From Thermoplasmatota archaeon (GTDB lineage: Archaea; Thermoplasmatota; DTKX01; DATEUP01): a stretch of DNA of 58,852 nt. Both the position numbers and the translations under genes were made by a program. The notes under the pieces were generated by a model. That model made no database searches. It was not told where the DNA came from and was given only the letters and a program-made list of their open reading frames with translations. Location of the stretch: NCBI GenBank assembly GCA_035283065.1, contig DATEUP010000275.1:1-58852 (forward strand). Direction: 5' to 3'. This document shows, piece after piece, positions 1 to 58,852 of the stretch (its first letter is position 1; each line of letters opens with the position of its first letter).

Positions 1-9
1 CCGCCGCAG

Positions 10-1905
10 GTGGCGTTCCTGCCGTGGACCTACGACCGCGCCCGCGGCGTGTGGCTTGCGCCCTCGAAGGACCTGTCGCTGATCATGCAGGCGTTCCCCG
101 GTGTGCGAATCCAGATGAACAAGTCCCTCGGGACCGAAGTAGCGCAAGCGAAGGAGAAGCGCGATGCTTCGGCGGCCGTGACGGCGCGCGGGGATCTTTT
201 GATCCCGGTCCCGGACGGCCTGGAACTCATGCCGTTCCAGGTCGCCGGCGTCGAGTGGATCGAGCGGTGCAGGGGGCGCGCGATGCTCGGGTGCGATATG
301 GGAACAGGCAAGACCATGCAGGCGCTCTCGTGGCTAAACCTTCACCCCGAGCATCGGCCGGCGGTGGTCGTATGCCCAAACAGCGTGAAGATAAACTGGC
401 AGCGGGAAGCGGAGAAGTGGTTGATCGACCCAAACGACCGCGTCGAGGTGGGTAAGGGCGGAAAGCCCAAGCCCGCGATCCTAAAGTCGGCCACCGTGCT
501 CGTGCTCAACTACGACATCCTGCACCGATGGGTAGAAGCGCTCGGGAAGGTCGCCGTCGCCATCCTCGACGAAGTTCACTACGTCAAGAGCCGCGACGCT
601 AGGCGGTCGGGTGCGGCCAAGACCCTATGCCGCAACGCCCGGCATGTCATCGCGCTTACCGGAACCCCGATCCTAAACCGTCCGGTTGAGGTCTGGCATC
701 AGGTGCATTGCATCGACCCGACCATCTTCCCCAACTTCGAGGAGTACGCCCGCGAGTACTGCGGCGGGAGCGGAAAGGGAAGGCGCGACCCGAAGGGACA
801 CGCCAATCTCGGGCAACTCGAGGAAGTGCTTCGGACCCGCGTGATGATTCGACGACGCAAGCAGGATGTACTCGACGATCTTCCCGAGAAGCGGCGCACC
901 ACGGTGTTGATGGAAATACCCATCACCGAGTACCAGGCGCACGAGCTGGAAGCGCGCGGCCGGGCCTCCCGGTTCAAGGAACTCAAGGAGGCGCTGCGCG
1001 GGATGCTAGAGGGCGTCGAGGATGAGGACGAACGCAAGCGGATACACGCCCAGAGCGTAGAGGGCCAAGAGGTCCCCAAGCTCCACGGCGCGCTCATGGC
1101 CGACATCGAGAATCTCAAGCAGGGCGCGGTCAACGCCAAGTACTCTCAGGTGATCGACTGGCTGAAGAACGCCGTCGAGCAGACGGACAAAATCATCGTG
1201 TTCGCCCACCACATCGCAATCCAGGACCGGCTCTTCAACGACCTTGAGGGCTACGGCGCGGCGCGGATCGCCGGGGGGATGAGCATCCAGAAGCGGCAGG
1301 CGAACATAGACAGGTTCCAGACGCAGGCCGACTGCCGGGTGATCGTCTGCTCGTTGGGCGCCGGCGCCTACGGGATCAACCTCCAGGCCGCCTCGCAGGT
1401 CGTGTTCGTCGAGTTGGGATGGAACCCGTCGCATCACGACCAGGCCGAGGACCGCGCGTACCGCAAGGGCCAGAAGAACGCCGTCAACTGCTGGTACATG
1501 GTCGCGCAGGGGACCATCGAGGAAGAGATCGCCCGGTTAATCGAGGCCAAGCGCGCTATCGTCTCGGCCGGCCAGGGAGACGTCGACCCCTACATCGAGC
1601 AGGACGGGATCATGGAGCGGGTGATAGACTACCTCGCCGGCGGGCCGACCGCGCATGTGGACCTGCCCGAGGCCGATCCCGACGACCCCGATTTTCACCC
1701 AAGTGAACAAGAAGCCGAGGATTGTGAACAGGACCCCGCCGAAGGTGAACAGGGCCCCGTTGAGGGAGAACGGCCCGGGCCTACGGAGCCCGCGGCGCCG
1801 CCCGATGAACCTGAACCGACCGACGAATCAACGCCGCCCGAGACAGCGCCTCCCGAAGACGAGCCGGAAACCGATCCAGAGGCTCAAGGCCCCGAAGGCC
1901 CCTGA
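10..1905 (+). CDS. SNF2/Rad54-family helicase/translocase; true 5' end probably at 58779 across the window junction
   Basis: 631-aa ORF opening at GTG. Motif I CDMGTGKT, motif II LDEVHYVK and LTGTPILNRP are present. C-lobe reads GINLQAASQVVFVELGWNPSHHDQAEDRAYRKGQ. The last ~80 aa form an acidic Pro/Glu-rich tail. Confidence 0.9.
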   Translation: MAFLPWTYDRARGVWLAPSKDLSLIMQAFPGVRIQMNKSLGTEVAQAKEKRDASAAVTARGDLLIPVPDGLELMPFQVAGVEWIERCRGRAMLGCDMGTGKTMQALSWLNLHPEHRPAVVVCPNSVKINWQREAEKWLIDPNDRVEVGKGGKPKPAILKSATVLVLNYDILHRWVEALGKVAVAILDEVHYVKSRDARRSGAAKTLCRNARHVIALTGTPILNRPVEVWHQVHCIDPTIFPNFEEYAREYCGGSGKGRRDPKGHANLGQLEEVLRTRVMIRRRKQDVLDDLPEKRRTTVLMEIPITEYQAHELEARGRASRFKELKEALRGMLEGVEDEDERKRIHAQSVEGQEVPKLHGALMADIENLKQGAVNAKYSQVIDWLKNAVEQTDKIIVFAHHIAIQDRLFNDLEGYGAARIAGGMSIQKRQANIDRFQTQADCRVIVCSLGAGAYGINLQAASQVVFVELGWNPSHHDQAEDRAYRKGQKNAVNCWYMVAQGTIEEEIARLIEAKRAIVSAGQGDVDPYIEQDGIMERVIDYLAGGPTAHVDLPEADPDDPDFHPSEQEAEDCEQDPAEGEQGPVEGERPGPTEPAAPPDEPEPTDESTPPETAPPEDEPETDPEAQGPEGP

Positions 1906-2719
1906 TTACCAGGTCGGCAACCTCGATCCCGTCGATTATGATCCTGCCCCGGATTGCGTTGAGGTTGGTCTCTCGGCGGGCTATGCCGAGGGGTTGAGTT
2001 CCGCGTTCGCGCGCCCGGGCCGCCTCATCGCGGATTGCCGTCAGTTCGACGGCGATGCCGAAGATCCGGCGCGAGGCCGTTTGTCTGGCCTCCTCGTCGA
2101 AGCGTTCGCCGGCTTGCTCGATCACCCGCGTTTGGGCGACGAACTCGTCTACCAGGCGGGCGGCCCGGTCGGCGCGCGCGATCAGACCGGCGACGTCGGC
2201 GGCGCGTCCGGCCAGGTGTTCGCGGGCGGCAAGCGAAACCTCGGGACGTTCGACGGCATCGGCGGCCTCTACGTCCACGCGTGCTTCCCCCCGCCGTCCG
2301 GCCGCTAACTGCGCCTCGACCTCTACCTCCAAGAGGGCGTTTTCGATGAGGGGGCGGAACTCTAGCACGCTACCCTCGATGCCGATTTGCGGGATTCCAG
2401 TGAGGCGCCCTAGGATCTGGAGCCTCAGAAGGTCTACCCGGAGCCGCGCTTGATCGAGTTCCGCCTCGGCTAGCCGCGCCGTCGCGCGCTCCACCTCGGC
2501 CATCTGGTTGAAGGACGTGATGCCAGACTTGATCCGCTCGGCGAACTCCGGGGCCGAGTTGGGGAATCGAAGATCGTTGAGCTTCTCGAGGCTTCCGGCC
2601 AGGAGGCGTGCGCGGAAGGCGCGCTCTTGGGACTCGGATACCTCTACCTGGAGGCGGATCGATTCCTTTAGGGCGCGCAGGTACGCTTCGATCAGGTCGT
2701 CCTCGAACGGGATGGGCAC
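1781..2719 (-). CDS. family-A paralog (helical, unknown function) ending ...VHRAAPRAP
   Basis: 312-aa ORF with GTG start. N-terminus VPIPFEDDLIEAYLRAL aligns with MPNGQEDLADQYRDTL of 13281-14138. The 3' 125 nt lie antisense to the helicase tail. Confidence 0.7.
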   Translation of the reverse strand: MPIPFEDDLIEAYLRALKESIRLQVEVSESQERAFRARLLAGSLEKLNDLRFPNSAPEFAERIKSGITSFNQMAEVERATARLAEAELDQARLRVDLLRLQILGRLTGIPQIGIEGSVLEFRPLIENALLEVEVEAQLAAGRRGEARVDVEAADAVERPEVSLAAREHLAGRAADVAGLIARADRAARLVDEFVAQTRVIEQAGERFDEEARQTASRRIFGIAVELTAIRDEAARARERGTQPLGIARRETNLNAIRGRIIIDGIEVADLVIRGLRGLEPLDRFPARLREALSRAALIRRSVQVHRAAPRAP

Positions 2720-2759
2720 GGGGGCATGGTAGTCGCCGGCGGGGACGCAAGCAAGAGAA

Positions 2760-2803
2760 GGCCCGGGCGACGTGATGGAGGGAGGCGAAGCTGCGCCCGG
2801 GCC
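2760..2803. repeat. 10-bp inverted repeat GGCCCGGGCG / CGCCCGGGCC with 24-nt spacer between two leftward genes
   Basis: Read directly from the sequence. Lies in the 110-nt gap upstream of the GTG at 2719. Confidence 0.5.
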
Positions 2804-2828
2804 CTGGGTTCCTATAGCCGTGGCGATT

Positions 2829-3101
2829 CTACCTGCGCCGGCGCGTCGATGCCATGGGCCACGAGGCGACGAGGCACCCGAGGTATCCGCCGGCGAGGAC
2901 GCGGCCGTCCGGGGCGACCAGGAGCACGGCGACGCGGCGGGCCCGGCGCATCACCCGGAAGAGCCGGTCGCGCGCCTCGTCGGACGAGGGGGTCTCGATG
3001 ATCAGGCGGTAGGACCGCCGGTCGTCCGCGCGGTCCCGTTGCCGGCCGGTGTGGCGGTAGACCCGCCAGCGGCCGCGGGCGAAGCCAACGTCGCCGATCA
3101 C
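2829..3101 (-). CDS. hypothetical protein (90 aa)
   Basis: GTG start overlaps the TGA of the upstream gene (GTGA). Protein-like C-terminal half: ...YRLIIETPSSDEARDRLFRVMRRARRVAVLLVAPDG. Confidence 0.5.
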   Translation of the reverse strand: MIGDVGFARGRWRVYRHTGRQRDRADDRRSYRLIIETPSSDEARDRLFRVMRRARRVAVLLVAPDGRVLAGGYLGCLVASWPMASTRRRR

Positions 3102-3406
3102 GCGCCCGCCTTCCGGGTCTCGATGAAGCCCAGGTCGAGAGCCACCTCTTGGGCGCGGTCGTCTTCGTGACGATGCTCCTTGACGTACTTGACCATGTCC
3201 CGGGTCGCCACGTGGTAGGACTTCTCCTTGCGGCCCCGCGGCCCGCGGCGGCACACCTCCACCGTGAAGACGCCCCCGCGATCCAAGGCGCATCGGCGGG
3301 CGTGCGCCAGCGCCGCCCGTTCGGCCTCGCGGGCCGTTCGGAAGGTCTTGAGGGAGCCGCCATAGTGGCAGAACCCCGTGCAGATCCAGTCCCACTTGCC
3401 GGTCAT
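3098..3406 (-). CDS. hypothetical protein (102 aa)
   Basis: ATG 3406 is preceded by GGGAGG. Begins MTGKWDWICTGFCHYGG. Confidence 0.65.
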   Translation of the reverse strand: MTGKWDWICTGFCHYGGSLKTFRTAREAERAALAHARRCALDRGGVFTVEVCRRGPRGRKEKSYHVATRDMVKYVKEHRHEDDRAQEVALDLGFIETRKAGA

Positions 3407-3419
3407 GGTGTCCTCCCTT

Positions 3420-3665
3420 CTAGCGATCCCTGAAGTCCTTCGCCGCCTCCAGCACATCGCTGAAGTAGTGGCCGTTGCCAGCGTCGTCGACGCTGTGGTT
3501 GTAGATCCACGTCACGTACTCGGGCCCGCTCCCAGTCTGGATGAAGTAGGCCATCACGATGAACATCCCGTGTCGGTTCCCCCATGGCTTGGCGGCGATC
3601 ACCGTGTGCCCGGAGAACTTGCAACCCATCAGGTCGTTGGCGCAGGTTTCGGTCGTCTGGTCCAT
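3420..3665 (-). CDS. hypothetical protein (81 aa)
   Basis: AAGGAG lies 7 nt upstream of ATG 3665. Composition is not low-complexity. Confidence 0.6.
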   Translation of the reverse strand: MDQTTETCANDLMGCKFSGHTVIAAKPWGNRHGMFIVMAYFIQTGSGPEYVTWIYNHSVDDAGNGHYFSDVLEAAKDFRDR

Positions 3666-3737
3666 TGGTAGCTCCTTCTCCCGGTAGTCCGGGCCGTTCG
3701 GGGCGGCCCCTTGCGGGGCGGCCCCTCCCGGTTCGGC

Positions 3738-4049
3738 CTACGCGACGATCTGGATCTTCTGCGTGACTTCGGCGCGCGCGGCGGTCTTGACCATCTCGAC
3801 GGCCTTCTTGCCGAGGCGGTCGGCGGCGCCCTCGCCGAACACCTGCTTGATCCGCGCGATGCTCGTGTCCGTGCGCTCCTGCGCCTCGAGGGTTGCAACG
3901 AACCGCTCGCCGGTCATGCGCCGGGTCTTGCGGTTCGTCAGCAAGCGCCGCACCGTGTCGGTGAGGATGCCGGCCTCCTTCTCGATGGAGGACTTCTGGG
4001 CGCGCAGTTCTCCGAGCCGGTCGACGAGATCGCTGATACGAACGCTCAT
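3738..4049 (-). CDS. hypothetical protein (103 aa), first gene of leftward block
   Basis: Internal ATG 4049 in the context GGAGGTACGCCATG. Begins MSVRISDLVDRLGELRAQK. Confidence 0.65.
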   Translation of the reverse strand: MSVRISDLVDRLGELRAQKSSIEKEAGILTDTVRRLLTNRKTRRMTGERFVATLEAQERTDTSIARIKQVFGEGAADRLGKKAVEMVKTAARAEVTQKIQIVA

Positions 4050-4263
4050 GGCGTACCTCCGAAAAGGGTGGGCGCCGGGGGTGGTGTTTGCGACGGCCTC
4101 GTAGCGGGAGGCGGTAGGCGCGGTCCCCCGGCGCCCGTTGTTCGTTTGTTCGTTCGTCGCAAACACCGTCCCTTCCCCTAGCAACCGCCGTGCCAGCGTG
4201 GCGCTGCGATCCGGCGGCGGAAAACGCGGAAGATTCTGCCGGGTGTCGAGCGCCGTCGACGCG

Positions 4264-4345
4264 GTGTAGACTTTCGTGGAATTTCGCGGATTGCGCCGCG
4301 CAATCGCGTCGACTTTTCTCTACGCGAGTCTTATGGATTCTACAC
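4264..4345. repeat. nested inverted repeats in the divergent control region
   Basis: GTGTAGA (4264-4270) pairs with TCTACAC (4339-4345). GATTGCG-CCG-CGCAATC sits at 4289-4305. GTCGAC occurs at 4255 and 4308. Confidence 0.6.
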
Positions 4346-4370
4346 AGCCATGGGCGAAAACCGCGATTCC

Positions 4371-4386
4371 GGTACGCATTCGTACC
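4371..4386. promoter_or_regulatory. operator-like palindrome GGTACGCATTCGTACC
   Basis: Perfect GGTACG-N4-CGTACC. Lies 83 nt upstream of the first rightward gene. Confidence 0.6.
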
Positions 4387-4468
4387 TTGCATTCTGGCAC
4401 GACGCTTGCTAAGGGTCAAGTCGGTGTTTGCGAACGAAACAACGACCCCCAACGAAGGGAGGACGGCT

Positions 4469-4663
4469 ATGGAACGGAAGAAACCGCGTCTCAAGCTCGT
4501 GGGCAAGGACGGCAACGCCTTCATGATCCTCGGCCTCGCGTTCCGCGCCCTGAAGGCTGCGGGATACACGCCCGAGGAGATCGCCAAGTTCAAGGCGCAA
4601 GCCACTGCTTCGGACTACGACCACCTGCTGCGCACGACGATGGAGTGGTTCGATGTCCGGTAA
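4469..4663 (+). CDS. hypothetical small protein (64 aa)
   Basis: GGGAGG SD upstream of ATG 4469. Sequence MERKKPRLKLVGKDGNAFMILGLAFRALKAAGYTPEEI. Confidence 0.7.
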   Translation: MERKKPRLKLVGKDGNAFMILGLAFRALKAAGYTPEEIAKFKAQATASDYDHLLRTTMEWFDVR

Positions 4664-4943
4664 CACCCACCCCAAGATCATCGACGCCGGGGCCCTCAAC
4701 GGCGCCCCGATATCCAAGACGACGACCCTCGATAGCCGGGCCAAGAACGGCCGGGAGTTCTTCGTGATCCACGCGACCGCCGGGTACGAGGCGGCCGGCG
4801 CGATGCTCCGCCGGACGGACGGCTACTTCGGCTGCGTCTTCTACCAGCAGGGCGCCCGCAACGGTCGGCTGACCAAGACCGAGGCCGAGGCGCGCGCGTT
4901 GTTCCAGATGTGGACCGCCCCCGAGGAGGTGGCCCGTGGTTAA
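4653..4943 (+). CDS. hypothetical protein (96 aa)
   Basis: ATG overlaps the upstream gene by 11 nt. Part of the same-strand chain. Confidence 0.55.
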   Translation: MSGNTHPKIIDAGALNGAPISKTTTLDSRAKNGREFFVIHATAGYEAAGAMLRRTDGYFGCVFYQQGARNGRLTKTEAEARALFQMWTAPEEVARG

Positions 4944-5175
4944 CACCTTCACGTTCCTCCAGTCCGCCGACCCCGAACTCCTGCGCGCGCAACGCCGCGG
5001 CCTGCGCGAACTGCGGGTGCTGATCAAGTGCTACCTGTACGACATGCTCTCGGAGGACGCCCGCCCTATCCGCGTCGTCAGCGTCCGCCGGGTATTCGGT
5101 TCCGGCCCGATTCGCTTCTCCGTCACGGTGCGCGGCCCCGCCAAGGCGACGCGCCAACTCAAGGAGGTGCTCTGA
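4936..5175 (+). CDS. hypothetical protein (79 aa)
   Basis: GTG start overlaps the upstream stop (GTGGTTAA). Confidence 0.5.
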   Translation: MVNTFTFLQSADPELLRAQRRGLRELRVLIKCYLYDMLSEDARPIRVVSVRRVFGSGPIRFSVTVRGPAKATRQLKEVL

Positions 5176-5459
5176 TGGCCAAAGTTCAGGTGTACGCCTT
5201 CGACAAGGACGGGAAGATGCTCCACTGCGCGCCTCGGGAGATCCCCGCGCGGTTCGGCCCCGGCACCATCCGTCGGTGGGAACGCGAGTGGCGCAAGTGG
5301 GCGCTGAACGAGGTGCCGGCCGACTGCCCGACCGGGATCGCCGTTCGGACCCGCCGCCACGGTTCCTGGTTGGTCGAGTGGCCGGCCAGTCCGGTCTACT
5401 ACGCGGCCAAGGGGCATCCGATGCGCCCGGCCGCGCAGGAGGTGACCGATGCGCGTTGA
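5175..5459 (+). CDS. hypothetical protein (94 aa)
   Basis: AAGGAGG SD. The ATG shares one nt with the upstream TGA. Confidence 0.65.
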   Translation: MAKVQVYAFDKDGKMLHCAPREIPARFGPGTIRRWEREWRKWALNEVPADCPTGIAVRTRRHGSWLVEWPASPVYYAAKGHPMRPAAQEVTDAR

Positions 5460-5712
5460 ACGCCGGTGGAACATCGACCCGGACCCCGACGTCGAGTACC
5501 GCGTCCACTCGGACGGCTACGGGTTCACGACCCGGACGCCCTTCGGCTACACGGCCTATCGGATCGTGGCCCTGCGCCGCGCCTGGTACACGGGCGGGGA
5601 ACTCTACATCGTCAAGGAGCGTCACCAGCGCCACGGCGCGACCCGCCGCTTCTTCACGCCGGTTGCCGTGTGGGAGGACGTGATGGCCGAGGTGTTTGGA
5701 GCGGAGGTGTAG
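5449..5712 (+). CDS. hypothetical protein (87 aa)
   Basis: ATG overlaps the upstream gene by 11 nt. Confidence 0.55.
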   Translation: MRVERRWNIDPDPDVEYRVHSDGYGFTTRTPFGYTAYRIVALRRAWYTGGELYIVKERHQRHGATRRFFTPVAVWEDVMAEVFGAEV

Positions 5713-51346: not shown

Positions 51347-51355
51347 GAGATTCCC

Positions 51356-51598: not shown

Positions 51599-51790
51599 AT
51601 GACTGATCTGCCAAGCACCACCGTCAGAGAAGTGAACTTCCAGAAGCGCGGGGAGATCCCCTCCGGCGCGCGCCTGGTGATCGTGCTCAATCCTACCACC
51701 CTCACGGGTGGTCAGGTGATCTTGGATCGCACCGTACCGGCGGGCCTGACGTTCGACGGACTCGTGCAGGTCGCCGGCACGCTCAAGTAG
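51599..51790 (+). CDS. hypothetical protein (63 aa)
   Basis: CAGGAGA SD. Confidence 0.6.
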   Translation: MTDLPSTTVREVNFQKRGEIPSGARLVIVLNPTTLTGGQVILDRTVPAGLTFDGLVQVAGTLK

Positions 51791-52091: not shown

Positions 52092-52155
52092 TGAAGAAGG
52101 CCCGGGGCGGGAAAGCAAGCCGAGAATCCAGGCCCCGGGCCTTGGGGGTTGGGCA

Positions 52156-52431: not shown

Positions 52432-52536
52432 CCGTAGTCCTCCTGGTTGTTAGGGACCCGGCACCGGCCGGCCGGGCGAGGTGCCGGGCCCCACGTCCAA
52501 TTGGCGAAGGCGAAACACACGCGAACCCTACCAAAA

Positions 52537-52548
52537 CGTACCCGTACC
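52537..52548. promoter_or_regulatory. tandem half-sites CGTACC CGTACC
   Basis: Direct repeat of the operator half-site within a 326-nt divergent gap. Confidence 0.4.
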
Positions 52549-52757
52549 CGTCAAGCGTTTCGGAACTTTCTTCGCGGGAACTTGCCCGGATGCTTGACGC
52601 CGAGGCGTCCCGTTGTAGACTGGCGATTAGGTAGACTGATGAATACGCAGACCCCCGAGCGAGACGCCGGCGAACCGGCTCCGGTCCCGCCTTGCGTGGC
52701 ATCGGTCTACCTCCGGTCGTCGGCGTTCTCGCTAGGGGGTCGTTTGGGAGATCGCCG

Positions 52758-53018
52758 ATGACAACCCGCAATGCACCCCCGGGCGGTGCAATCGCCTCGT
52801 TGGCCGCGAATCACAACACCACTGAGCGCACCGAGGCAAGAGACCGGCTCCACGCCCAACTTGATGCCCTTGGGGGTCGGACTCCAACCGATACCGAACT
52901 GCGGAGTCTCCTTCAGACCGCAGACGATGCCTTTCACCCCAAGTCCGCCGCGTGGCGGCTGATGTCCGCCCTGGTCCGCGCTCTCGGTGAAGCGAAGAGA
53001 CGGATCTCAAATGGCTAA
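52758..53018 (+). CDS. hypothetical protein (86 aa)
   Basis: GGGAG SD before ATG 52758. Confidence 0.55.
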   Translation: MTTRNAPPGGAIASLAANHNTTERTEARDRLHAQLDALGGRTPTDTELRSLLQTADDAFHPKSAAWRLMSALVRALGEAKRRISNG

Positions 53019-53841
53019 GGGCGTCCACAAGATCCCCTCGTTCCCCTTCTACCCGGGCGACTGGCGCAAGGATCCCGAACTCAACGCCTGCTCCAAGGCC
53101 GCCAAGGGGGTCTGGATTGACCTGATGTGCTTCCTCTGGGAGGCCCCCCAGAGGGGTAAGTTGACGGGCACCTGGGCCGACTTCGCCAACCTTCTGGGCC
53201 TCCCAGAGCCCACCGCCCGTGCGCTCATCCAGGAGCTCGTCGACCATCGAGTTCCCACGCTCGTCACGCATCGTCACAACAAAGTCACGTTGATGTCACG
53301 CCGCTTTATCCGAATGGAGAAAGAGCGCATAAACGCGGCCAATAGGCAGAACGAGGCCAGAAAACGCAAGCGCGATCAAGGTGGTGTCACGCCAGAATCA
53401 CGCCCCAGTCACGGTAACGTCACGCCGATGTTCACCCCCTCTTCATCTTCATCTTCATCTTCATCTTCATCTTCCCTTACGGGTGAGGAGGGGGAGGCGG
53501 CCCACGCCGCCGCCCCCGCGCCCGCCGATCCGGTCTCGTTGATGGACGCAGCGGCCGAGATCAAGGCCGCTCTTCGGACGTCGACGGCGCCCCGGTGGAT
53601 CGTCGAGGACATCGAAGCGGCGATGGCCCGGACGCCCGGCCTTATGCTCGGAACCCTGGTCAACCGGATCAGGTCGAAGGCGTCGGAGTTCGCTGGCCAG
53701 CCGGCGCGGACGTGCATCGAAACGCTCTGGCCCTGCCAGCCCGCGCCCCGAGCGAAGCCGTCGCAGATCGACATGATCGCCGAGATCAACCGCAAGCCCC
53801 TGCCTCCTAGGAAGAAGGCGGATCCCAATGGAAGAGCATGA
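53011..53841 (+). CDS. DUF1376-domain protein (replication-associated?)
   Basis: FPFYPGDWRKDPELNACSKAAKGVWIDLMCFLW matches the DUF1376 N-terminal motif. Contains a 12-Ser run. Confidence 0.65.
   Translation: MAKGVHKIPSFPFYPGDWRKDPELNACSKAAKGVWIDLMCFLWEAPQRGKLTGTWADFANLLGLPEPTARALIQELVDHRVPTLVTHRHNKVTLMSRRFIRMEKERINAANRQNEARKRKRDQGGVTPESRPSHGNVTPMFTPSSSSSSSSSSSSLTGEEGEAAHAAAPAPADPVSLMDAAAEIKAALRTSTAPRWIVEDIEAAMARTPGLMLGTLVNRIRSKASEFAGQPARTCIETLWPCQPAPRAKPSQIDMIAEINRKPLPPRKKADPNGRA
53441..53474. repeat. hexanucleotide tandem repeat (CTTCAT) x5.7 encoding poly-Ser
   Basis: Read directly. Uses AT-ending Ser codons in a high-GC gene. Confidence 0.9.
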
Positions 53842-54304
53842 GTTCCTTGGGGCGTCTTCCATGTTGGCCCGGAACTTCGGGCCGACGTGGTGGGAGAACT
53901 TCATGACGATGCTCTGGGAGGACTACGGTCACCTGGACGTCGACACGTGGCGCAAAGTAGTCGAGTTCGTCCGCAAGCACGAGACCTCGCACTGGCCTTT
54001 GATCTCGCGATTCGAGGAGGCGGTCGCCTCGGTGAAGGGCGGTATCATCACTCAAATCGGGAAGCAAGACGTCGACCTCCAGCGTCGCCGCGACGCCGAG
54101 GCCCTCGAAGAGGATAAGAGATACCAAGAGGCGATGGGGCGCTTCGAGAAACTCGCCGACGAGAAGCGTGCCCCCTATCTTGCGGCGGCCACCGATCAGC
54201 TCAACAGGCTGCCCCCGTTCAAGGGGCGCACGGCCGACCAAGACGACGCGTACCGCCGCCGGTGGGCGTGCCTCGAGTGGCTTCGGGAGACGGGTGGCAG
54301 GTGA
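53828..54304 (+). CDS. hypothetical protein (158 aa)
   Basis: The ATG overlaps the upstream gene by 14 nt. Confidence 0.6.
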   Translation: MEEHEFLGASSMLARNFGPTWWENFMTMLWEDYGHLDVDTWRKVVEFVRKHETSHWPLISRFEEAVASVKGGIITQIGKQDVDLQRRRDAEALEEDKRYQEAMGRFEKLADEKRAPYLAAATDQLNRLPPFKGRTADQDDAYRRRWACLEWLRETGGR

Positions 54305-54750
54305 GCAGGCTTACGATAGTGCCGTGCGACCTGGATGAAGCGAACGCCTTCGTCGAACGGGTGCATCGTTACCACGGGCCTGTGGTCGGGCACAAGTTCT
54401 CCCTGGCGGTGACGGACGAGGCTGACGTGATTCGATGCGTAGCGATCGTCGGCCGCCCGGTCGCCCGGCACCTCGACGACGGATGGACGCTCGAGGTCAC
54501 CCGCGTCGCAACGGATGGGTGCCCGAACGCATGCTCTGCGCTCTACGGCGCTGCGCGTCGCGCGACCTTCGCCCTCGGGTTCCGTCGACTGGTCACGTAC
54601 ACCCTCCCGGCCGAAAGCGGGGCGTCCTTGCGGGGCGCTGGCTGGCGGGTCATAGGGGAGGCAGGCGGCGGAAGCTGGTCGCGGAAGGATCGGCCGCGGG
54701 TCGACAAACACCCGACGCAGGCGAAACTCCGGTGGGAGATTAGTTCGTGA
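54301..54750 (+). CDS. conserved methylase-associated protein (XF1762-like, recalled from memory)
   Basis: GTGA overlap. Pattern FVERVHRYHGPVVGHKF ... IVGRPVARHLDDGWTLEVTRVATDG ... SLRGAGW. Confidence 0.4.
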   Translation: MSRLTIVPCDLDEANAFVERVHRYHGPVVGHKFSLAVTDEADVIRCVAIVGRPVARHLDDGWTLEVTRVATDGCPNACSALYGAARRATFALGFRRLVTYTLPAESGASLRGAGWRVIGEAGGGSWSRKDRPRVDKHPTQAKLRWEISS

Positions 54751-55961
54751 GCATCCCCGAGGTTCTCGCCGGCTCCCGCTCCTGGCACGTCGAAACCGGG
54801 GACGCCCTCGCCGTGCTCCGGTCGATGCTCGACGCCTCGGTCCAGTGCTGCGTGACATCGCCGCCTTATTTTGGACTCCGCAATTATCAGGCTGATGGGC
54901 AGATCGGCCTTGAGCGCACGTTGCAGGAGTACGTCGCTAGGCTCGTAGAGGTCTTCGCCGAGGTGCGACGCGTCCTCCGCGAGGACGGGACGCTCTGGCT
55001 GAACATCGGCGACTGCTACAACGCCTACCCCGACAACCGAGGGACCGAGAGCGAGTACGCCGGCAAACGCAAGGAGATGGAGGCGCGATTCCCTGAAGGT
55101 TACGGCTTGATGGCCCCGTCCCTCAAGCCCAAAGACCTCTGCGGCATCCCGTGGAGGGTCGCCTTCGCGCTACAGGCCGATGGCTGGTGGCTGCGATCCG
55201 ACATCATTTGGGAAAAAAGTAACCCAATGCCAGAGAGCGTCCGGGACCGGCCAACAAAGGCGCACGAGTACATCTTCCTGCTGACGAAAAGGGATCGCTA
55301 CTTCTGGGACTCCGACGCGGTTCGAGAGCCACATCACTCCCAGAGCATCGCGCGCCGGAACCGCGCAAGAAGCGGGGGCAAGTACCGGGGGACGAACGGA
55401 GCGCAGCCGAAAGGCAACCCCCACTCCATCACGCTGGCGTTGGATCACTGCCTGCACCCGGCCGGCCGCAACATGCTGACCGTCTGGCGCATGGCGACGC
55501 AACCCTTCCCCGGCGACCACTTCGCGGTCTTCCCCTTCGAGCTGGCCGAGCGATGCATCAAGGCGGGAACTTCGGAGATGGGATGCTGCTCGCGGTGCGG
55601 CGCCCCGCGCATGCGGCGGGTCGAGCGGGAGCCTATGGTCATTCGCCGATCCGGGCGCACGCACGAGAAGGGGCGAACGCGATCGAGCGGCACCGTCGTT
55701 GAACCCCCGCGGGCGACGACGGTCGGGTGGTCTGCATCCTGCGACTGCGGCGCGGCCGGCGTGGGGTGCGTCGTGCTCGACCCGTTCTGCGGCGCCGGAA
55801 CCGCCGGCGTCGTCGCAACCCACCTCGTCCGCAGGTTCGTTGGGATAGAACTCAACCCCGAGTACGCCGAGATGGGCCGCGATCGGATCCGGCGTGGCTA
55901 CTACGCGCCGCATCCGACCGATACGGAAACGCCGCTGTTTGACGGAGCAGGAGCATGTTGA
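54747..55961 (+). CDS. beta-class DNA methyltransferase (N4-cytosine or N6-adenine)
   Basis: VTSPPY (motif IV) lies near the N-terminus. VLDPFCGAGTAGV (motif I) lies near the C-terminus. Confidence 0.8.
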   Translation: MSIPEVLAGSRSWHVETGDALAVLRSMLDASVQCCVTSPPYFGLRNYQADGQIGLERTLQEYVARLVEVFAEVRRVLREDGTLWLNIGDCYNAYPDNRGTESEYAGKRKEMEARFPEGYGLMAPSLKPKDLCGIPWRVAFALQADGWWLRSDIIWEKSNPMPESVRDRPTKAHEYIFLLTKRDRYFWDSDAVREPHHSQSIARRNRARSGGKYRGTNGAQPKGNPHSITLALDHCLHPAGRNMLTVWRMATQPFPGDHFAVFPFELAERCIKAGTSEMGCCSRCGAPRMRRVEREPMVIRRSGRTHEKGRTRSSGTVVEPPRATTVGWSASCDCGAAGVGCVVLDPFCGAGTAGVVATHLVRRFVGIELNPEYAEMGRDRIRRGYYAPHPTDTETPLFDGAGAC

Positions 55962-56422
55962 CGTTCTACATCATCGCAGGGATCGCCATCGTGTTGACGG
56001 CATGTCTCGCCGAGGATATTGGTAAAGTTTTGTTCGACGGGTTGCACAGGTGGTGGCGCATCCGTCGTGCCTGTAAGACTATTAACCGCATCGTCTCGGA
56101 GGAAGAAAAGAACCTCCCCCCTCTCCCCGAGAAGATGCACGCGCCGAGCCTGTGGTACAACGGGCCGGACGTAACGCCCGAATTCCCCGAGATCGTAGTC
56201 GCGTGCGCTCCCGACGATCTGTTCACGAACAGTCGCGGCGTGACGCACTTCAAGGGCTGCTACTGCGTGTATACGCCTGACTACCCGGAAGCATGCTCTT
56301 GCCCCGCTCCCTACGGCAAGCACTCTCTGCCGTGCCCATACCAGCCACCGCCCGAACCGCCCTGCCCGCACGATCACGTGGACCCGGATTGGGCCGATAA
56401 AGAATTCGACAGGATGGCATGA
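55955..56422 (+). CDS. membrane-anchored Cys/Pro-rich protein (155 aa)
   Basis: N-terminal TM FYIIAGIAIVLTACL. GGAGCAGGAG SD. Confidence 0.55.
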   Translation: MLTFYIIAGIAIVLTACLAEDIGKVLFDGLHRWWRIRRACKTINRIVSEEEKNLPPLPEKMHAPSLWYNGPDVTPEFPEIVVACAPDDLFTNSRGVTHFKGCYCVYTPDYPEACSCPAPYGKHSLPCPYQPPPEPPCPHDHVDPDWADKEFDRMA

Positions 56423-57738
56423 AGGAGACCGCCGATGACGTGGTTGTACCTCCCCTCCGAGTGCTTGCCCTCTGCGCCGGCGGGGGCGGAATCGAACTCG
56501 GTCTCCAGCTCGTCCTCGGGCGCGAGGGAGTACGCACCGTGGGGTACTGTGAACGGGAAGCCTACGCAGCGGCCGTCATCGTGGCGCGGATGGAAGACGC
56601 GGCCCTGGATCACGCGCCTGTCTGGGACGACGTTGGAACCTTCGACGGCCGACGCTGGCGTGGAGCGGTGGATCTCGTCGCTGCAGGCTTCCCCTGCCCT
56701 CCGGTTTCGGTCGCCGGCAAGCGCAAGGGCGACAACGACGAGCGCTGGCTCTGGCCGGACGTCTTCCGGGTCTGGCAGGAGACGGGCGCGCCGTGGCTCT
56801 TCGTCGAAAACGTCGCCGGGCTCCGCTCATCCGACATTGGGGATCGCAGTAGCGTTCCTGTGCTCGGAGGGATACCTGACGAGTGGGCAGGGGCTTCTGA
56901 GCGGGCGCTACAACTCATACTGCGAGACCTTGCCGCGGGCGGGTACTCTGCGGAATGGATCTCTCTATCGGCGGAACAACTGGGTGCCCCGCATCAGCGG
57001 GATCGGGTGTTCCTCTTGGCCCACGCCGATGAGCGGGGCGGCCACAAGGACGGCGCAGGGGGGCATCCAGCTATCGCAGGCGGCACGGGGGTGGCCGACG
57101 CAGGACGCGGGGACCAGTCAAAACGGCCACGGCCGGCGGGGCGGACGCCCGGACAACGGGAGCCAGAGCGGGGAGCGGCTGGAGGCAACGGCCAAGATGT
57201 GGCCGACCCCGCCGGCGGGCGACGTCGCCGGCGGGCGGACCACCAAGGGCAAAGCCCGGCAGGGGGAAACGGGGCTGAGGAAGGTGGCGCAGAAGTGGCC
57301 GACCCCCAAGCAGAAGACCGGCGGCCCGGAGGGGCGGGCGTCGCGGGCCCGAAGGGGAGCCGGCGGGGAAGACCTCGACGCCAGCGCCCGGATGTGGGGG
57401 ACGCCGCGCGCGGCCGAGTGGAAGGGGGCGGGGCCGGTCGGAAGCTCCTCGCACCAGCACTGGCTGGATCACAAGTACCTGACGGCGCAGGCGACGCTCT
57501 TCCGCTGTGGCCCCCCGGACGAGACGAGTACGACGCCTGGCGAGACGTCCTCGCCGTCCGACCCGACCTCGCGCCGGCAGTTGAATCCACGCATGGCAGA
57601 GTGGCTGATGGCATGGCCAATTGGATGGAGCGACTCCAACTTATCGGGAACGGTGTTGTGCCGGTCTGTGCAGCAGTGGCGTTCCTCGTCATTGCCCATC
57701 GTTCTGGCCTGTCTGGAATCTTTAAGGAGCAGCCGTGA
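56419..57738 (+). CDS. DNA (cytosine-5)-methyltransferase
   Basis: Motif I LALCAGGGG, IV GFPCPPVS, VI FVENVAG, VIII QRDRVFLLA, X IGNGVVP. The ~170-aa Gly/Arg/Ala-rich middle looks non-native. Confidence 0.75.
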   Translation: MKETADDVVVPPLRVLALCAGGGGIELGLQLVLGREGVRTVGYCEREAYAAAVIVARMEDAALDHAPVWDDVGTFDGRRWRGAVDLVAAGFPCPPVSVAGKRKGDNDERWLWPDVFRVWQETGAPWLFVENVAGLRSSDIGDRSSVPVLGGIPDEWAGASERALQLILRDLAAGGYSAEWISLSAEQLGAPHQRDRVFLLAHADERGGHKDGAGGHPAIAGGTGVADAGRGDQSKRPRPAGRTPGQREPERGAAGGNGQDVADPAGGRRRRRADHQGQSPAGGNGAEEGGAEVADPQAEDRRPGGAGVAGPKGSRRGRPRRQRPDVGDAARGRVEGGGAGRKLLAPALAGSQVPDGAGDALPLWPPGRDEYDAWRDVLAVRPDLAPAVESTHGRVADGMANWMERLQLIGNGVVPVCAAVAFLVIAHRSGLSGIFKEQP

Positions 57739-57748
57739 AAGCGTGTAA
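56435..57748 (+). CDS. co-extensive +1-frame ORF (WPTP-repeat sequence): overprinted gene or frameshifted methylase segment
   Basis: AAGGAG lies 7 nt upstream of ATG 56435. Five W-P/G-T-P/Q repeats and LNPRMAEWLMAWPIGWSD. High third-position G+C. Confidence 0.4.
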   Translation: MTWLYLPSECLPSAPAGAESNSVSSSSSGAREYAPWGTVNGKPTQRPSSWRGWKTRPWITRLSGTTLEPSTADAGVERWISSLQASPALRFRSPASARATTTSAGSGRTSSGSGRRRARRGSSSKTSPGSAHPTLGIAVAFLCSEGYLTSGQGLLSGRYNSYCETLPRAGTLRNGSLYRRNNWVPRISGIGCSSWPTPMSGAATRTAQGGIQLSQAARGWPTQDAGTSQNGHGRRGGRPDNGSQSGERLEATAKMWPTPPAGDVAGGRTTKGKARQGETGLRKVAQKWPTPKQKTGGPEGRASRARRGAGGEDLDASARMWGTPRAAEWKGAGPVGSSSHQHWLDHKYLTAQATLFRCGPPDETSTTPGETSSPSDPTSRRQLNPRMAEWLMAWPIGWSDSNLSGTVLCRSVQQWRSSSLPIVLACLESLRSSRESV

Positions 57749-58208
57749 TAACTGCGGGGAAGAATTACTCAAACGCCCACAAGAGTGGCCAGCACGCTTT
57801 GCTGCCCGAGAATTTTGCAACCGCTCGTGCGCTACGAGGGCAAGGGGTGTAAATCCCGTCACCACCAGGTATCGGCACATCAAGGTTGGAGGGCGGGCGT
57901 ACCAAGAGCACAGATGGGTGATGCAGAACGCCATCGGGCGTCCGCTGCGGAGCGATGAGTTTGTACATCACAAGAACGGGAACAAGCTGGACAACCGACC
58001 GGAGAATCTTGAAGTGCTCGACCCGGTGACGCACGGCCGGGAGCATCACCTGATTCTTCCTTTGAGGAAGCCCTGTGTTGTATGTGGCCGGGAGTTCACC
58101 CCTCACAAGACGAAGCGACGGCGGGCGAAGGTGTGCGGTCCAGAATGTAGGGAGGCTCTAAGGAGGCGCCCCCGTACCTCCAAGAAGGAACGCGATGTCG
58201 TTGCTTGA
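57735..58208 (+). CDS. HNH endonuclease
   Basis: AAGGAG SD and GTGA overlap. Motif HHKNGNKLDNRPENLEVLDPVTHGREH flanked by Cys pairs. Confidence 0.85.
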   Translation: MKACNNCGEELLKRPQEWPARFAAREFCNRSCATRARGVNPVTTRYRHIKVGGRAYQEHRWVMQNAIGRPLRSDEFVHHKNGNKLDNRPENLEVLDPVTHGREHHLILPLRKPCVVCGREFTPHKTKRRRAKVCGPECREALRRRPRTSKKERDVVA

Positions 58209-58343
58209 CCTGGCCCGCCCCGGATGTGACGCTGTGGGCCGTGCAGCAAGTCAAGGGGTTGGCGAAGTCGCCGCGATAACGCAGGTATGCTCGCTGGCGT
58301 TCCTTCATTTGCTCAGCCGCGCCGGAGGTGGTAGAGATGGTGC

Positions 58344-58526
58344 GTGAAACTGGTGCGGGCGTTGGGGTTCGGCGTGGGTCTTTGCCTTCTGGCGGCGGGG
58401 ATGATCATGAGCGTTGAACGAGGGCTTGAAGACGGTTCGGCCGCGGCGATGCTCGCCGGCGGATGCCTGCTGGTAGCTTGGTACGTTGAAACGTGGAGGC
58501 GCGATGACGCAAACCCCAAACCCTGA
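58344..58526 (+). CDS. two-TM small membrane protein (60 aa)
   Basis: GTG start with GGAGGTGG upstream. Confidence 0.45.
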   Translation: MKLVRALGFGVGLCLLAAGMIMSVERGLEDGSAAAMLAGGCLLVAWYVETWRRDDANPKP

Positions 58527-58782
58527 AGAAGTGGCCCGCCGGATCGGGGAGGCGTCGGCCTTGATCATCACCACCCTCAACGACCACGGCTACGAGGGCG
58601 CAGAGATCGTGGCGGCGTGCTCGAACGTCGTGTCGGTCTTCTTCGCCGGCGCCGTCAAGGAGGGCCTTGCCTACGAACGCGGCGAGGACTTCATGCTTGA
58701 ACTGATGGCCGGGATGCAGGAGCAGTTCGAGCGGCAGTTCCCCGCGCTCAACCGGCAGTCGCGCGATGGGGGTGGGTCGTGA
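58504..58782 (+). CDS. hypothetical protein (92 aa)
   Basis: GGAGG SD before ATG 58504. Confidence 0.55.
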   Translation: MTQTPNPEEVARRIGEASALIITTLNDHGYEGAEIVAACSNVVSVFFAGAVKEGLAYERGEDFMLELMAGMQEQFERQFPALNRQSRDGGGS

Positions 58783-58852
58783 CGGTCGAGATCTGCCGCG
58801 AATCCGATGAGAAGCTGGCCCTCCGGTTCGTCACGGGCGACCGGCGGCCGCC
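58779..58852 (+). CDS. partial ORF, probable N-terminus of the SNF2 helicase
   Basis: GTGA overlap. VTVEICRESDEKLALRFVTGDRRP runs off the window. It is in frame with ORF 10-1905 if the terminal CCGCC copies are merged. Confidence 0.5.
   Translation, partial: MTVEICRESDEKLALRFVTGDRRP

Follow-up and report, generated by a model that had tools for sequence, protein, structure and literature searches.

A complete circular groundwater element combining a bacterial-phage early region with a cysteine-free late module that may encode an unconventional virion

The window analysed here, a stretch of 58,852 nucleotides, represents a whole circular replicon of 58.85 kb, that of an uncultivated element from groundwater. 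Its end overlaps its start by 5 nt, and joining the two restores a 657-aa helicase (g01). In other assemblies (L011-L013) the junction is crossed uninterrupted, with the 657-aa helicase following immediately after g79. At least six groundwater metagenomes yielded the element again, as contigs of 58.6-58.99 kb with differing break points. According to our analysis, the genome is circular or circularly permuted. A diverged sister genome (L019) of 58,790 bp shares 51-85% protein identity with it, with some genes replaced, and the near-equal lengths of these two genomes (n = 2) hint at a capacity constraint. Genes were re-called with a self-trained codon model, in concordance with public Prodigal calls on independent assemblies. 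Strand orientation changes 14 times round the circle, fewer than the roughly 20 flips counted in the initial annotation. The element was not found in IMG/VR, GenBank phages or PLSDB. Its early gene set, which occupies about 40% of the genome, and a low-coding stretch are arranged as follows:

1..1905, + strand: g01, SNF2-family helicase, 657 aa; the first 23 codons lie at 58779-58852, so that the gene crosses the circular junction
2829..5712: divergent early region of small ORFs, g02-g10; g06 matches phrog_1933
5995..7338, + strand: g11, SMC/RecF-like AAA ATPase (Pfam AAA_23; phrog_1499, E 1.6e-58, end to end)
7335..12321: small early and DNA-modification genes (Pfam, PHROGs)
16103..20962, - strand: recombination/methylation operon with g32 (SAM-MTase), g33 (Dam, D12), g36 (exonuclease), g37 (Rad52-like annealase) and g38
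51865..52986: low-coding stretch of about 1.1 kb, in which codon-position GC gives no convincing sign of coding, directly upstream of the replication genes
52987..58782, + strand: replication/DNA-modification operon with g73, g74, g75, g76, g77, x05, x07 and g79

By homology, this early region is of bacterial-phage type, as had been proposed from the sequence alone. It comprises a SNF2 helicase, an SMC-like ATPase, an exonuclease with a Rad52-like annealase, a DUF1376 protein and an HNH endonuclease, together with four DNA methylases and a Mom-like modifier. The helicase matches Pfam SNF2-rel_dom (E 7e-28), Helicase_C and the DNA helicase family phrog_62 (E 1.9e-107). The g11 family is associated with phage recombination and has tblastn matches in Pseudomonas, Yersinia and Salinibacter phages. 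Within 7335..12321, g17 is cupin/dTDP-sugar-isomerase-like, g19 is a DUF5131 fragment and g23 is DUF7768/nucleoside 2-deoxyribosyltransferase-like. The recombination/methylation operon matches Pfam MethyltransfD12 and Rad52_Rad22 as well as phrog_56, phrog_2139 and phrog_7838. In the replication operon, g73 corresponds to phrog_1882 and is DUF1376/YdaU-like by motif only, while g75 is Mom-like (phrog_1384, E 2e-31), g76 is an N4/N6 methylase (Pfam N6_N4_Mtase, E 1e-43), x05 is a C5 methylase (Pfam DNA_methylase, E 1e-22) and x07 is an HNH protein (Pfam HNH_3); phrog_67 and phrog_363 were also matched there. The low-coding stretch upstream may serve as an origin or a regulatory region, and a 40-nt inverted repeat (4157-4196 / 4394-4433) lies in the divergent intergenic spacer of the g02-g10 region.

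Operon starts are directly preceded by bacterial -35/-10 promoters (TTGACA/TTGAAC-N16-17-TATACT), with start codons about 7 nt past the -10 box. Many of these promoters are leaderless, including the sigma70-type promoter that drives the recombination/methylation operon, and bacterial ribosome-binding sites are present. No TATA/BRE elements were found at -26 of operon starts. The host is a bacterium of high GC content, possibly actinobacterial, not the archaeon named in NCBI. An ordinary bacterial-phage early set replicates, recombines and modifies the element's DNA under host sigma70-type promoters.

In order to identify virion, packaging, plasmid and integration genes, all of the approximately 80 proteins were scanned against Pfam and PHROGs (E<=0.01), ten late proteins against NCBIfam, and ten mid-sized proteins lacking assignments against PHROGs at E<=1. 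PADLOC was run on the family of the 249-aa protein g50, PDB sequence searches were performed on the giant, beta-rich and g50 proteins, and two of about 26 late proteins (g50 and g59) were modelled structurally. The Pfam and PHROGs scans returned no terminase, portal, capsid, scaffold, protease, tail tube, sheath or tape-measure protein, no lysin, and no integrase, ParA/B, Rep or conjugation family. None of these, and no HK97 or double-jelly-roll capsid, was revealed by the HMM libraries, by PADLOC, by the PDB sequence searches or by the two models, and the ten mid-sized proteins gave nothing even at E<=1. The genome yielded neither a lysis enzyme nor any type of packaging motor, and the late proteins showed no tblastn similarity to 50,697 phage records. 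Family matches were confined to DNA metabolism and modification, four glycosyltransferase-like proteins, methyltransferases, a phosphatase, HEAT repeats, RHH and DUF559. In a six-frame scan, the sole canonical Walker A belonged to g11, the SNF2 helicase being the other NTPase; a Walker-A-like string in g56 was dismissed, as it is absent from the 51%-identical orthologue. The real ORFs of at least 400 aa are exactly those listed initially (the helicase, the SMC-like ATPase, two methylases and the giants), and any further long ORFs lie off-frame and are antisense artefacts rich in Arg and Pro. The initial description of a phage-like element without recognisable packaging, capsid, tail or integration genes, and with a single Walker-A protein, was therefore borne out, and it is strengthened by circular closure, because the absence applies to a complete genome and not to a fragment.

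The unexplained half of the initial annotation measures 45.6% of the genome. The features of this late module, with the associated sugar genes, are as follows:

1781..2719, - strand: x01, 312 aa, first of the C-terminal motif proteins, helical, Cys-free, ends ...HRAAPRAP; no family match
13254..15844, + strand: g29, g30 and x03, tandem paralogues (BLASTP) of 279-294 aa, helical, Cys-free, starting MPNG(Q/E)
21043..25272, + strand: g39, giant of 1409 aa; N-terminus beta-rich, a polyproline tract, extended helical body containing hydrophobic segments; ends ...ARRAARS
25269..28511: sugar/modification cluster with g40 (methyltransferase), g41 (dual-specificity phosphatase), g42 (GT9), g43 (GT2) and g44 (GT1-like), by Pfam
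28626..32857, + strand: g45 (365 aa, ends ...ARRAAR) and g46 (1031 aa, ends ...RRAAPRAP), both Cys-free
34057..34806, - strand: g50, 249 aa, monocistronic, with its own promoter, SD and strong intrinsic terminator (34009-34032)
35165..44726, + strand: late operon g51-g56, all Cys-free, no family matches
45158..46535, - strand: g58 (124 aa) and g59 (282 aa), paralogues (BLASTP, family alignment) that carry a C1q/TNF-like jelly-roll head domain
46539..47495, - strand: g60, GT1-like glycosyltransferase (Pfam Glyco_trans_1_2, E 1.5e-10), inside the beta-protein cluster
47672..51790: small beta-rich Cys-free proteins g61, g63, x13, g64, g65 and g66-g70, without signal peptides
48145-48543 (strand not given): g62, methyltransferase-like and containing cysteine, inside the preceding interval

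The 26 late proteins form one compositional class. They are essentially cysteine-free, with 0 Cys in >7,000 residues compared to 1.9% in the enzymes, and the same holds for the module of the sister genome. No N-terminal signal peptides or N-terminal TM segments were found in them, and their dN/dS values range from 0.17 to 0.44. A terminal R-[AG]-A-[AP]-R peptide is carried by ten of these proteins, which cover 34% of the genome. Across the proteome, R[AG]A[APT]R occurs eight times, and seven of these occurrences are <=3 residues from a C-terminus, compared with 0.02 expected in shuffles; what had been called a tail motif is a C-terminal peptide. It is kept in the sister genome, and its codons vary from copy to copy, which argues for conservation at the level of the peptide, not of the DNA.

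Among the carriers of this peptide, the tandem paralogues end in RGAPRP (g29), RGAARP (g30) and RAAPRAP (x03) and showed no family match even at E<=1. The giant g39 found nothing in Pfam, PHROGs, NCBIfam or the PDB sequence search. In g46, which has a leaderless promoter, residues 280-370 form HEAT repeats (HEAT_2, E 7e-18) with alphaRep/HEAT sequence matches in the PDB, and a DVSGS motif is possibly vWA-like. The late operon encodes g51 (2-3 TM), g52, g53 with a Pro-rich tail, g54 (ends ...RAAPRP), g55 (1346 aa, TM segments, ends ...RRRAARG) and g56 (1156 aa, a TM segment, ends ...PRAATRG). Among 5.8 billion clusters, g55 is restricted to the window and the sister genome, where the sugar/modification cluster g40-g44 is conserved at 64-77% identity.

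For the C-terminal domain of g59, the AF2 model (pLDDT ~90) matched C1q, ExsFA/BxpB and phage tail-fibre tips in Foldseek, at weak E-values (5e-3); its N-domain model is poor. This anchor-like N-terminal domain is retained in L022, where the C-terminal head is exchanged. In homologues, the g66 domain is preceded by collagen repeats. The last 60 aa of g68 match phrog_21918; in homologues, the same domain matches the C-termini of PHROGs annotated as virion structural protein and head decoration. These virion-protein links are transitive, via remote homologues. Where the beta domain has chromosomal homologues, these carry signal peptides and are ordinary secreted proteins.

The most conserved late protein is g50 (dN/dS 0.20). 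Its AF2 model (pLDDT 90.6) shows a helical bundle with a small sheet, a predicted fold unmatched in PDB (best Foldseek E 1.3) and BFVD (best E 0.29); this protein, singled out initially as a candidate, has none of the known capsid folds. Exhaustive HMMER searches recovered a g50 family. In L024 and L026 its members adjoin authentic tail-fibre genes; relatives also form tandem paralogues, and one is fused to fibre repeats. Some of the distant members have an apparently chromosomal and non-viral setting, with a trypsin-like protease or an AAA+ protein as neighbour.

We posit, at about even probability, that the replicon is a previously undescribed bacterial virus-like element with an unconventional putative virion. 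The cysteine-free, signal-less protein class, the fibre-head and virion-type domains, the g50 kin flanking tail-fibre genes and the terminal peptide favour the novel particle or delivery apparatus suggested initially, although neither a shell protein nor a packaging mechanism was identified.

The main rival reading, possible but rather unlikely, takes the replicon for a plasmid of phage origin, or for another kind of non-viral extrachromosomal element, that has kept a phage replication, recombination and anti-restriction module and has no virion genes. The Cys-free proteins would then be exported cargo (adhesins, giant helical effectors), and the basic C-terminal peptide a signal for a host-encoded T1SS-, T4SS- or T7SS-style system. 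This would agree with the circular assembly, with the failure of every method used to find capsid or packaging genes, with the absence from IMG/VR and with the chromosomal occurrence of certain g50 relatives and of secreted beta-domain homologues; moreover, Cys-free acidic giants with a conserved extreme C-terminus resemble C-terminal-signal secretion substrates. However, no Rep, ParA/B/M, relaxase, coupling protein, secretion component or second P-loop was found, PLSDB holds no relative, and the beta proteins would have no export route, since they possess neither signal peptide nor C-terminal motif. The ties of g50 and g68 relatives to phage fibre and virion proteins, the large outlay on DNA modification typical of viruses and the near-identical length of two diverged genomes likewise speak against it.

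Another reading, a tailed phage (Caudoviricetes) in which divergence has carried the terminase, portal, capsid and tail genes past HMM detection, or in which they are embedded in the giants as domains, is improbable. The element resembles Caudoviricetes in its early genes and fibre-type domains, the hydrophobic segments of the giants may recall tape-measure or ejection proteins, and structure models cover only two of about 26 late proteins. Large terminases, however, are detected more readily than most phage proteins, and none appeared at E<=0.01 in Pfam or PHROGs. The empty searches at E<=1 and against the phage records, the lack of an unassigned P-loop in any frame (the g56 string not being conserved), the size of the largest non-giant ORF without assignment (<=365 aa) and the 14 orientation flips without long co-directional late operons argue in the same direction.

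A large satellite or defective element that makes fibres and accessory proteins itself, and borrows capsid and terminase from an unlinked helper phage for packaging, would explain fibre-type genes without capsid or packaging genes, the HNH endonuclease close to the junction region and the phage-sized, conserved genome length. We regard it as highly improbable, as integrase, recognisable cos/pac, small terminase and capsid-remodelling gene are all absent, the replication and modification set is fully autonomous and no helper candidate was identified; known satellites are also several-fold smaller than 58.8 kb. An archaeal (Thermoplasmatota) virus or plasmid would fit the label "Candidatus Thermoplasmatota archaeon" MAG on every NCBI copy and the often unrecognisable structural genes of archaeal viruses, but is scarcely credible given that this label derives from one bin, that promoters are canonically bacterial without TATA/BRE at -26, that a GT9 heptosyltransferase accompanies the bacterial-phage-type early genes and that the closest helicase relatives are found in bacterial MAGs.

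If the element is indeed an undescribed bacterial virus, nearly half of a genome without recognisable virion genes may encode a particle of an unfamiliar kind. The remaining ~46% would be a morphogenetic and host-interaction module, whose 26 essentially Cys-free, signal-less proteins would be synthesized in the cytoplasm and built to act outside the cell. The late proteins may assemble into a particle whose shell and genome loading have no detectable kinship to HK97/portal/terminase or double-jelly-roll/FtsK systems. Small fibre-head domains, C1q/TNF-like or of other types (g58, g59, g66, g68 and relatives), would be displayed on its surface and possibly be glycosylated by transferases that the element itself encodes, with the g50 family as a putative fibre-associated structural protein. 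The genome would be enclosed through co-assembly or condensation and not by an ATP-driven terminase. The basic R-[AG]-A-[AP]-R peptide may draw ten helical proteins, four of them giants with membrane-like segments, to a common docking site or to the DNA. A terminal peptide common to ten proteins is reminiscent of sorted or recruited proteins, and such recruitment would resemble the targeting of cargo and internal proteins in other assemblies.

The window represents an entire genome, circular or circularly permuted, and no fragment, since its ends join within one gene and independent contigs cross the junction. Joining the last 74 nt to the first 1,905 nt (5-nt overlap) restored a 657-aa SNF2 helicase (g01), and three metagenome contigs (L011-L013) run across this junction uninterrupted. 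A self-trained codon model was used for gene calling, because high GC yields many spurious ORFs; on the 58,852 bp (66% GC) it predicted about 80 genes at a coding density of 91%. These calls matched the Prodigal calls on public assemblies, and tRNA and Rfam scans of the window gave no matches. Strand orientation changes 14 times around the circle, and not about 20 times as initially counted. By exact-protein look-up the same element was found in many groundwater metagenomes (ENA 'ANAN16-1' scaffolds, runs of PRJNA268031/PRJNA292723, JGI 3300025167/25174/25322 and Logan assemblies), on contigs of 58,596-58,988 bp with differing break points, and it is a free circle in assemblies from many samples. 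Contig ends from at least five independent assemblies, partial contigs of 14-28 kb among them, fall within a few bases of one another at 58848-58852 / 1-5, about 70 nt past the stop of g79 and in the first 70 nt of the helicase gene; other assemblies cross this point. Such a recurrent end is due to a branch point in the assembly graph or to a physical terminus.

A sister genome in SRR22388270 (contig 12408, 58,790 bp) is syntenic with the element, its proteins being 51-85% identical and some genes replaced. The dN/dS values of 12 orthologue pairs range from 0.17 to 0.44, and the unknown genes are therefore real and under constraint. The near-equal length of the two diverged genomes weakly hints at a capacity limit, two genomes being all that is compared. 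Literature searches gave no description of the element. Megablast of the element and tblastn of late proteins against GenBank phages and PLSDB gave no matches except for the ATPase g11, and IMG/VR scans with the monocistronic protein g50, the orthologue pair of the giant g55 and a g50 sub-alignment yielded no relatives.

The whole proteome was compared with Pfam and PHROGs, with several proteins per query joined by GS linkers; matches to 'Serglycin' are artefacts of these linkers, which may also have shifted E-values slightly. The early region proved to be of phage type, as the initial annotation had proposed. The recognised genes are as follows.

g01: SNF2 helicase (phrog_62, E 2e-107)
g11: SMC/RecF-like ATPase (phrog_1499, E 2e-58), with homologues in Pseudomonas, Yersinia and Salinibacter phages
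g36, g37: recombination, a RecE-like exonuclease and a Rad52-like annealase
g33, g76, x05, g75: DNA modification, respectively Dam, N4/N6 methylase, C5 methylase and Mom-like protein
x07, g57, g48: HNH, DUF559 and RHH proteins; the early set also holds a DUF1376-type replication protein
g23, g17, g19: DUF7768/deoxyribosyltransferase-like protein, cupin and DUF5131 fragment
g32, g40, g41: two SAM-methyltransferases and a phosphatase
g42, g43, g44, g60: glycosyltransferases of types GT9, GT2 and, for the last two, GT1-like
g46: HEAT repeats

Several further features were observed among or beside these genes.

9656-9847, g19: 63-aa ORF holding just the first ~40 residues of the DUF5131 (phage Gp37/Gp68-type) profile, probably a gene remnant
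56419-57748, C5 methylase gene: long Gly/Arg-rich insert with a second frame open across the same stretch; the product has 439 aa, 437 aa (other frame) or 298 aa depending on the assembly, which suggests strain-level frameshifts or variation
12372-13358, minus strand, x02: Cys-rich protein of 328 aa with several CxxC pairs, overlapping the start of g29 by ~100 nt; by eye a RusA-like resolvase was considered, which no HMM supported
4157-4196 / 4394-4433: 40-nt inverted repeat, 80% complementary and 197 nt apart, in the divergent g05|g06 intergenic region of the early operons, which may be an operator or origin-like element
51865-52986: ~1.1 kb with no convincing coding signal just upstream of the replication genes, a candidate replication origin; in public Prodigal calls the minus strand of this stretch carries an Arg/Pro-rich ORF of 285 aa

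The element had been described as free of recognisable packaging, capsid, tail, integration, ParA/B and conjugation genes, and this was borne out across the whole proteome: Pfam and PHROGs gave no match to terminase, portal, capsid, scaffold/protease, tail or lysin families, nor to integrase, Rep, Par or conjugation families. HMM comparison of every called ORF, together with Foldseek on the models of g50 and the beta-rich protein g59, likewise revealed no standard virion or packaging gene. Nothing was added by NCBIfam for ten late proteins, by PHROGs at E<=1 for ten mid-sized unknowns, by PADLOC and Pfam for the g50 family, or by PDB sequence searches. No ORF matched a large terminase (ATPase-nuclease) in Pfam or PHROGs at E<=0.01, and the largest unknown ORF apart from the giants has 365 aa. 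The reported lack of a second Walker-A protein also held, as a six-frame scan found only g11 and one string in g56, which is not conserved in the orthologue and was rejected as a true P-loop. Long alternative-frame ORFs were considered as hidden terminase hosts, but they overlap conserved genes, and from this, their codon-position GC and their Arg/Pro-rich translations they were taken to be non-coding.

For a portal there was no family match in Pfam, PHROGs (also at E<=1) or NCBIfam, the giants being covered at sequence level. No HMM matched an HK97 major capsid, and the model of the best candidate, g50, is not HK97-like (two late proteins were modelled). No HMM matched a DJR major capsid either; the C-terminal domain of g59 is a single C1q/TNF-like jelly roll and its N-terminal domain was modelled at pLDDT<50. 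Tail tube, tape measure and baseplate had no family match, fibre-head-type domains being all that was found, and an FtsK/HerA-type packaging ATPase had neither a family match nor a spare P-loop. Among plasmid functions, initiator and partition proteins (ParA/B, ParM, TubZ) gave no Pfam or PHROG match and no similarity in PLSDB, and conjugation or mobilisation proteins (relaxase, T4CP, VirB4) gave no match and no P-loop. Integrases and recombinases had no family match in Pfam or PHROGs, and no secretion machinery for C-terminal signals is encoded on the element.

The unexplained part of the genome amounts to 46%. Its late set is characterized by a basic peptide, R-[AG]-A-[AP]-R-[AP]-[PGS] or RRAAR(G/S), at the C-terminus of ten proteins that make up 34% of the genome.

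x01: motif protein
g29, g30, x03: tandem paralogues
g39, g46, g55, g56: giants of 1,409, 1,031, 1,346 and 1,156 aa
g45, g54: motif proteins

Proteome-wide, seven of the eight matches to R[AG]A[APT]R lie at most 3 residues from a C-terminus (shuffles give 0.02), and the sister genome retains the motif. Its explanation as a repeat at the DNA level, as a terminator or as an artefact of ribosome-binding sites was rejected: the codons differ and the motif is present where no gene follows, and selection therefore acts on the peptide. The motif proteins are rich in A/E/R/L/Q (helical), with internal hydrophobic segments in some. No relative of g55 other than its orthologue was found among 5.8 billion clusters. 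Within assembly ERZ28564264 (L001 3786-7588), g55 (37219-41259) is split into ORFs of 523 and 731 aa, which points to a variant with a frameshift or to faulty assembly. In g46, past the HEAT repeats at residues ~545-560 (31400-31450), 'FDVSGS' resembles the vWA MIDAS motif (DxSxS), with no vWA match in Pfam. CCGCCG-type repeats encode polyproline tracts at 21358-21413 (g39, PPPPPPPQPPPPQPPQPPPPPGPPGPPG) and 35474-35505 (g51), and g51 and g53 have Pro-rich C-terminal tails. Another C-terminal peptide, ...(A/R)PNPA(G/A)PGPVTPT(S), is common to g47 (32897-33226) and g52 (35523-35675) and also present in the sister genome.

Cysteine avoidance marks proteins that work outside the cell. With the exception of g39 (3 in 1,409 residues), no cysteine occurs in more than 7,000 residues of the late set, here taken as the motif proteins, g50-g56, g58, g59, g61, g63, x13 and g64-g70, as against 1.9% in the recognisable enzymes. 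The sister genome shows the same contrast. Signal peptides were found in none of the late-set proteins.

Exhaustive HMMER searches recovered remote families for each candidate structural protein. The C-terminal domain of g58/g59 is a widespread module of ~100 aa, and chromosomal domains of this type are preceded by signal peptides and sometimes by collagen-like repeats. The AlphaFold model of this domain in g59 (residues 195-282, pLDDT about 90) resembles C1q globular heads, exosporium ExsFA/BxpB and phage fibre tips (Foldseek E ~5e-3, weak; probability ~1). In one g59 relative the N-terminus MTNLPQPPVPG is kept and the head is swapped, a pattern as in receptor-binding proteins. Homologues carry the g66 domain after long collagen repeats. 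In g68 the last 60 aa match phrog_21918, and where homologues have this domain it matches the C-terminal ends of PHROGs annotated as 'virion structural protein' and 'head decoration'. The links of the beta-rich proteins and g50 to virions are transitive and pass by way of remote homologues.

The most conserved late protein is g50 (249 aa), which has its own promoter, leader, Shine-Dalgarno sequence and strong terminator and belongs to a family of about 25 members with 21-38% identity. Its model (pLDDT 90.6, from the family alignment) is a helical bundle in which the chain termini form a small sheet, and no analogue was found in PDB (Foldseek best E 1.3) or BFVD. Neither HK97 nor jelly-roll, it was rejected as a capsid of known fold. 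A role as gasdermin or defence protein, an idea that came from protease neighbours, was also rejected, as there was no fold match and no meaningful PADLOC family among 22 members. Relatives of g50 in two phage-like contigs directly adjoin authentic tail-fibre genes (phrog_892, E 2e-36; Mtd_N fibre), and one contig holds three tandem paralogues, one of them fused to fibre repeats. A metagenome scan with the g50 sub-alignment recovered only three short contigs. In two other, apparently chromosomal contigs the relatives lie beside a trypsin-like protease or an AAA+ protein; the family occurs in both tail-fibre and chromosomal/protease contexts. These distant loci (L020 2527-5073 and L021 619-3155) are on low-GC bacterial contigs, with a membrane-anchored trypsin-like protease, or a TPR protein and a sigma54-type AAA+ protein, as neighbours. 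In a protein of 601 aa (P0180) the g50-family domain is fused to a trypsin-like peptidase. The g50-type domain and the protease appear to form an undescribed protease-associated cassette.

Regarding the host, 49 of 82 genes have a canonical GGAGG Shine-Dalgarno sequence, and bacterial -35/-10 promoters (TTGACA/TTGAAC/TTGCAC, N16-17, TATACT/TATTAT) stand in front of the first genes of operons. The GTG or ATG start often lies ~7 nt 3' of the -10 box, which points to leaderless transcripts.

20962-21043, 27681-27700, 29727-29762, 33390-33430 and ~49908-49945: leaderless units of g38, g39, g43, g46, g48 and g65

The promoters of g38 and g39 stand back to back and overlap. The sole copy at NCBI (proteins HKZ60555-HKZ60598) was assigned to a 'Candidatus Thermoplasmatota archaeon' MAG; judging by the layout of the promoters, the early genes of bacterial-phage type and the GT9 heptosyltransferase, this contig was probably mis-binned. 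In species-representative genomes, five of the six top matches of the helicase are Solirubrobacterales (Actinomycetota) MAGs at 29-33% identity, and beyond the helicase nothing was found in common with the MAGs that matched. This gives only a hint of a Solirubrobacterales-type host, which would agree with the high GC and leaderless starts.

The best fit, to which we give about an even chance, is a virus-like element with a conventional early half, the late half encoding an extracellular assembly with an unconventional shell and genome loading. The late proteins, free of cysteine and made without export signals, would form this assembly, which would bear fibre-head domains and might be glycosylated by transferases that the element itself encodes; its shell and genome loading would be unlike both known bacterial dsDNA systems. 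Most plausibly, the C-terminal peptide recruits the ten proteins to a common site, hub protein or DNA. We posit only tentatively that the element and its sister are founders of a new bacterial dsDNA virus lineage, with virion proteins unrelated to HK97 and jelly-roll capsids and a particle filled without a terminase or FtsK-type motor. In such a lineage, a third of the genome would encode helical proteins, including the four giants, recruited to the particle or DNA via a C-terminal RxxPRxP-type peptide, and the g50 fold would be a fibre-associated structural protein.

A phage-derived plasmid, whose Cys-free proteins are secreted by a host system reading the C-terminal peptide, is an unlikely source of these features. 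The element resembles phage-plasmids and phage-derived plasmids in being circular, in its phage-type replication and recombination genes and in having no integrase, but it differs in having no partition system, plasmid Rep or recognisable virion module and no PLSDB relative; moreover, no mobilisation gene is present and the beta-rich proteins are untagged. An ultra-divergent tailed phage would account for the early region, where helicase, phrog_1499 ATPase, exonuclease/annealase, DUF1376, methylases, Mom-like protein, HNH and many small ORFs are all as in temperate and virulent tailed phages. The element, though complete, nevertheless has no recognisable gene for a terminase, a portal, an HK97 capsid, a protease/scaffold, a tail or a lysin, no spare P-loop and no ORF of suitable size, and we consider this origin improbable. 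Dependence on a helper is more doubtful still. An archaeal element is scarcely credible, the bin label being its sole support and the promoter architecture being of bacterial sigma70 type with leaderless starts.

Nearly all known bacterial dsDNA viruses have one of two capsid lineages and an ATP-driven packaging motor, and virus-detection tools rely on capsid and packaging hallmark genes. Here, a complete, recurrent 59-kb phage-like genome is under purifying selection with neither known capsid lineage nor packaging motor detected. Current pipelines overlook it, as it is absent from IMG/VR and filed in an archaeal bin at NCBI. If the element forms particles, both the architecture of its virion and its peptide-based system of recruitment would be new for bacteria, and whole virus groups would escape hallmark-gene surveys. 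If it is a plasmid, it would encode a new class of Cys-free, C-terminally tagged proteins and raise the question of which host machinery reads the tag. Either way, the g50 fold, the C-terminal peptide and the Cys-free module are testable objects, and g50, the g58/g59 head, g66 and g67 are families that lack annotation in Pfam, PHROG and PADLOC.

Among known systems, phage tail-fibre and receptor-binding modules (including Mtd-type) are similar in the C1q-like head of g58/g59, the swapped C-terminus of g59, the g66 and g68 domains that end collagen-like or virion structural proteins, and the g50 relatives that adjoin fibre genes. Unlike in those modules, the heads of the element mostly stand alone (60-180 aa) without stalks, and there is no tail or baseplate for attachment. 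Pleolipoviruses, plasmaviruses, spindle/bicaudaviruses (ATV) and pR1SE are non-tailed and without packaging ATPase, or are vesicle-forming plasmids; they have archaeal or wall-less bacterial hosts and are usually much smaller. The element presumably resembles them in having no packaging NTPase, and in its membrane-segment, large coiled-coil/helical, HEAT and possibly vWA proteins and its glycosyltransferases. In contrast to theirs, its host uses bacterial sigma70 promoters, and we know of no detectable homologue in common. The C-terminal peptide fits no targeting-peptide consensus known to us. Although the element encodes neither an encapsulin/HK97 shell nor secretion machinery, it may be likened to encapsulin cargo-loading, microcompartment encapsulation and C-terminal secretion peptides, in all of which one short terminal peptide is carried by many unrelated proteins.
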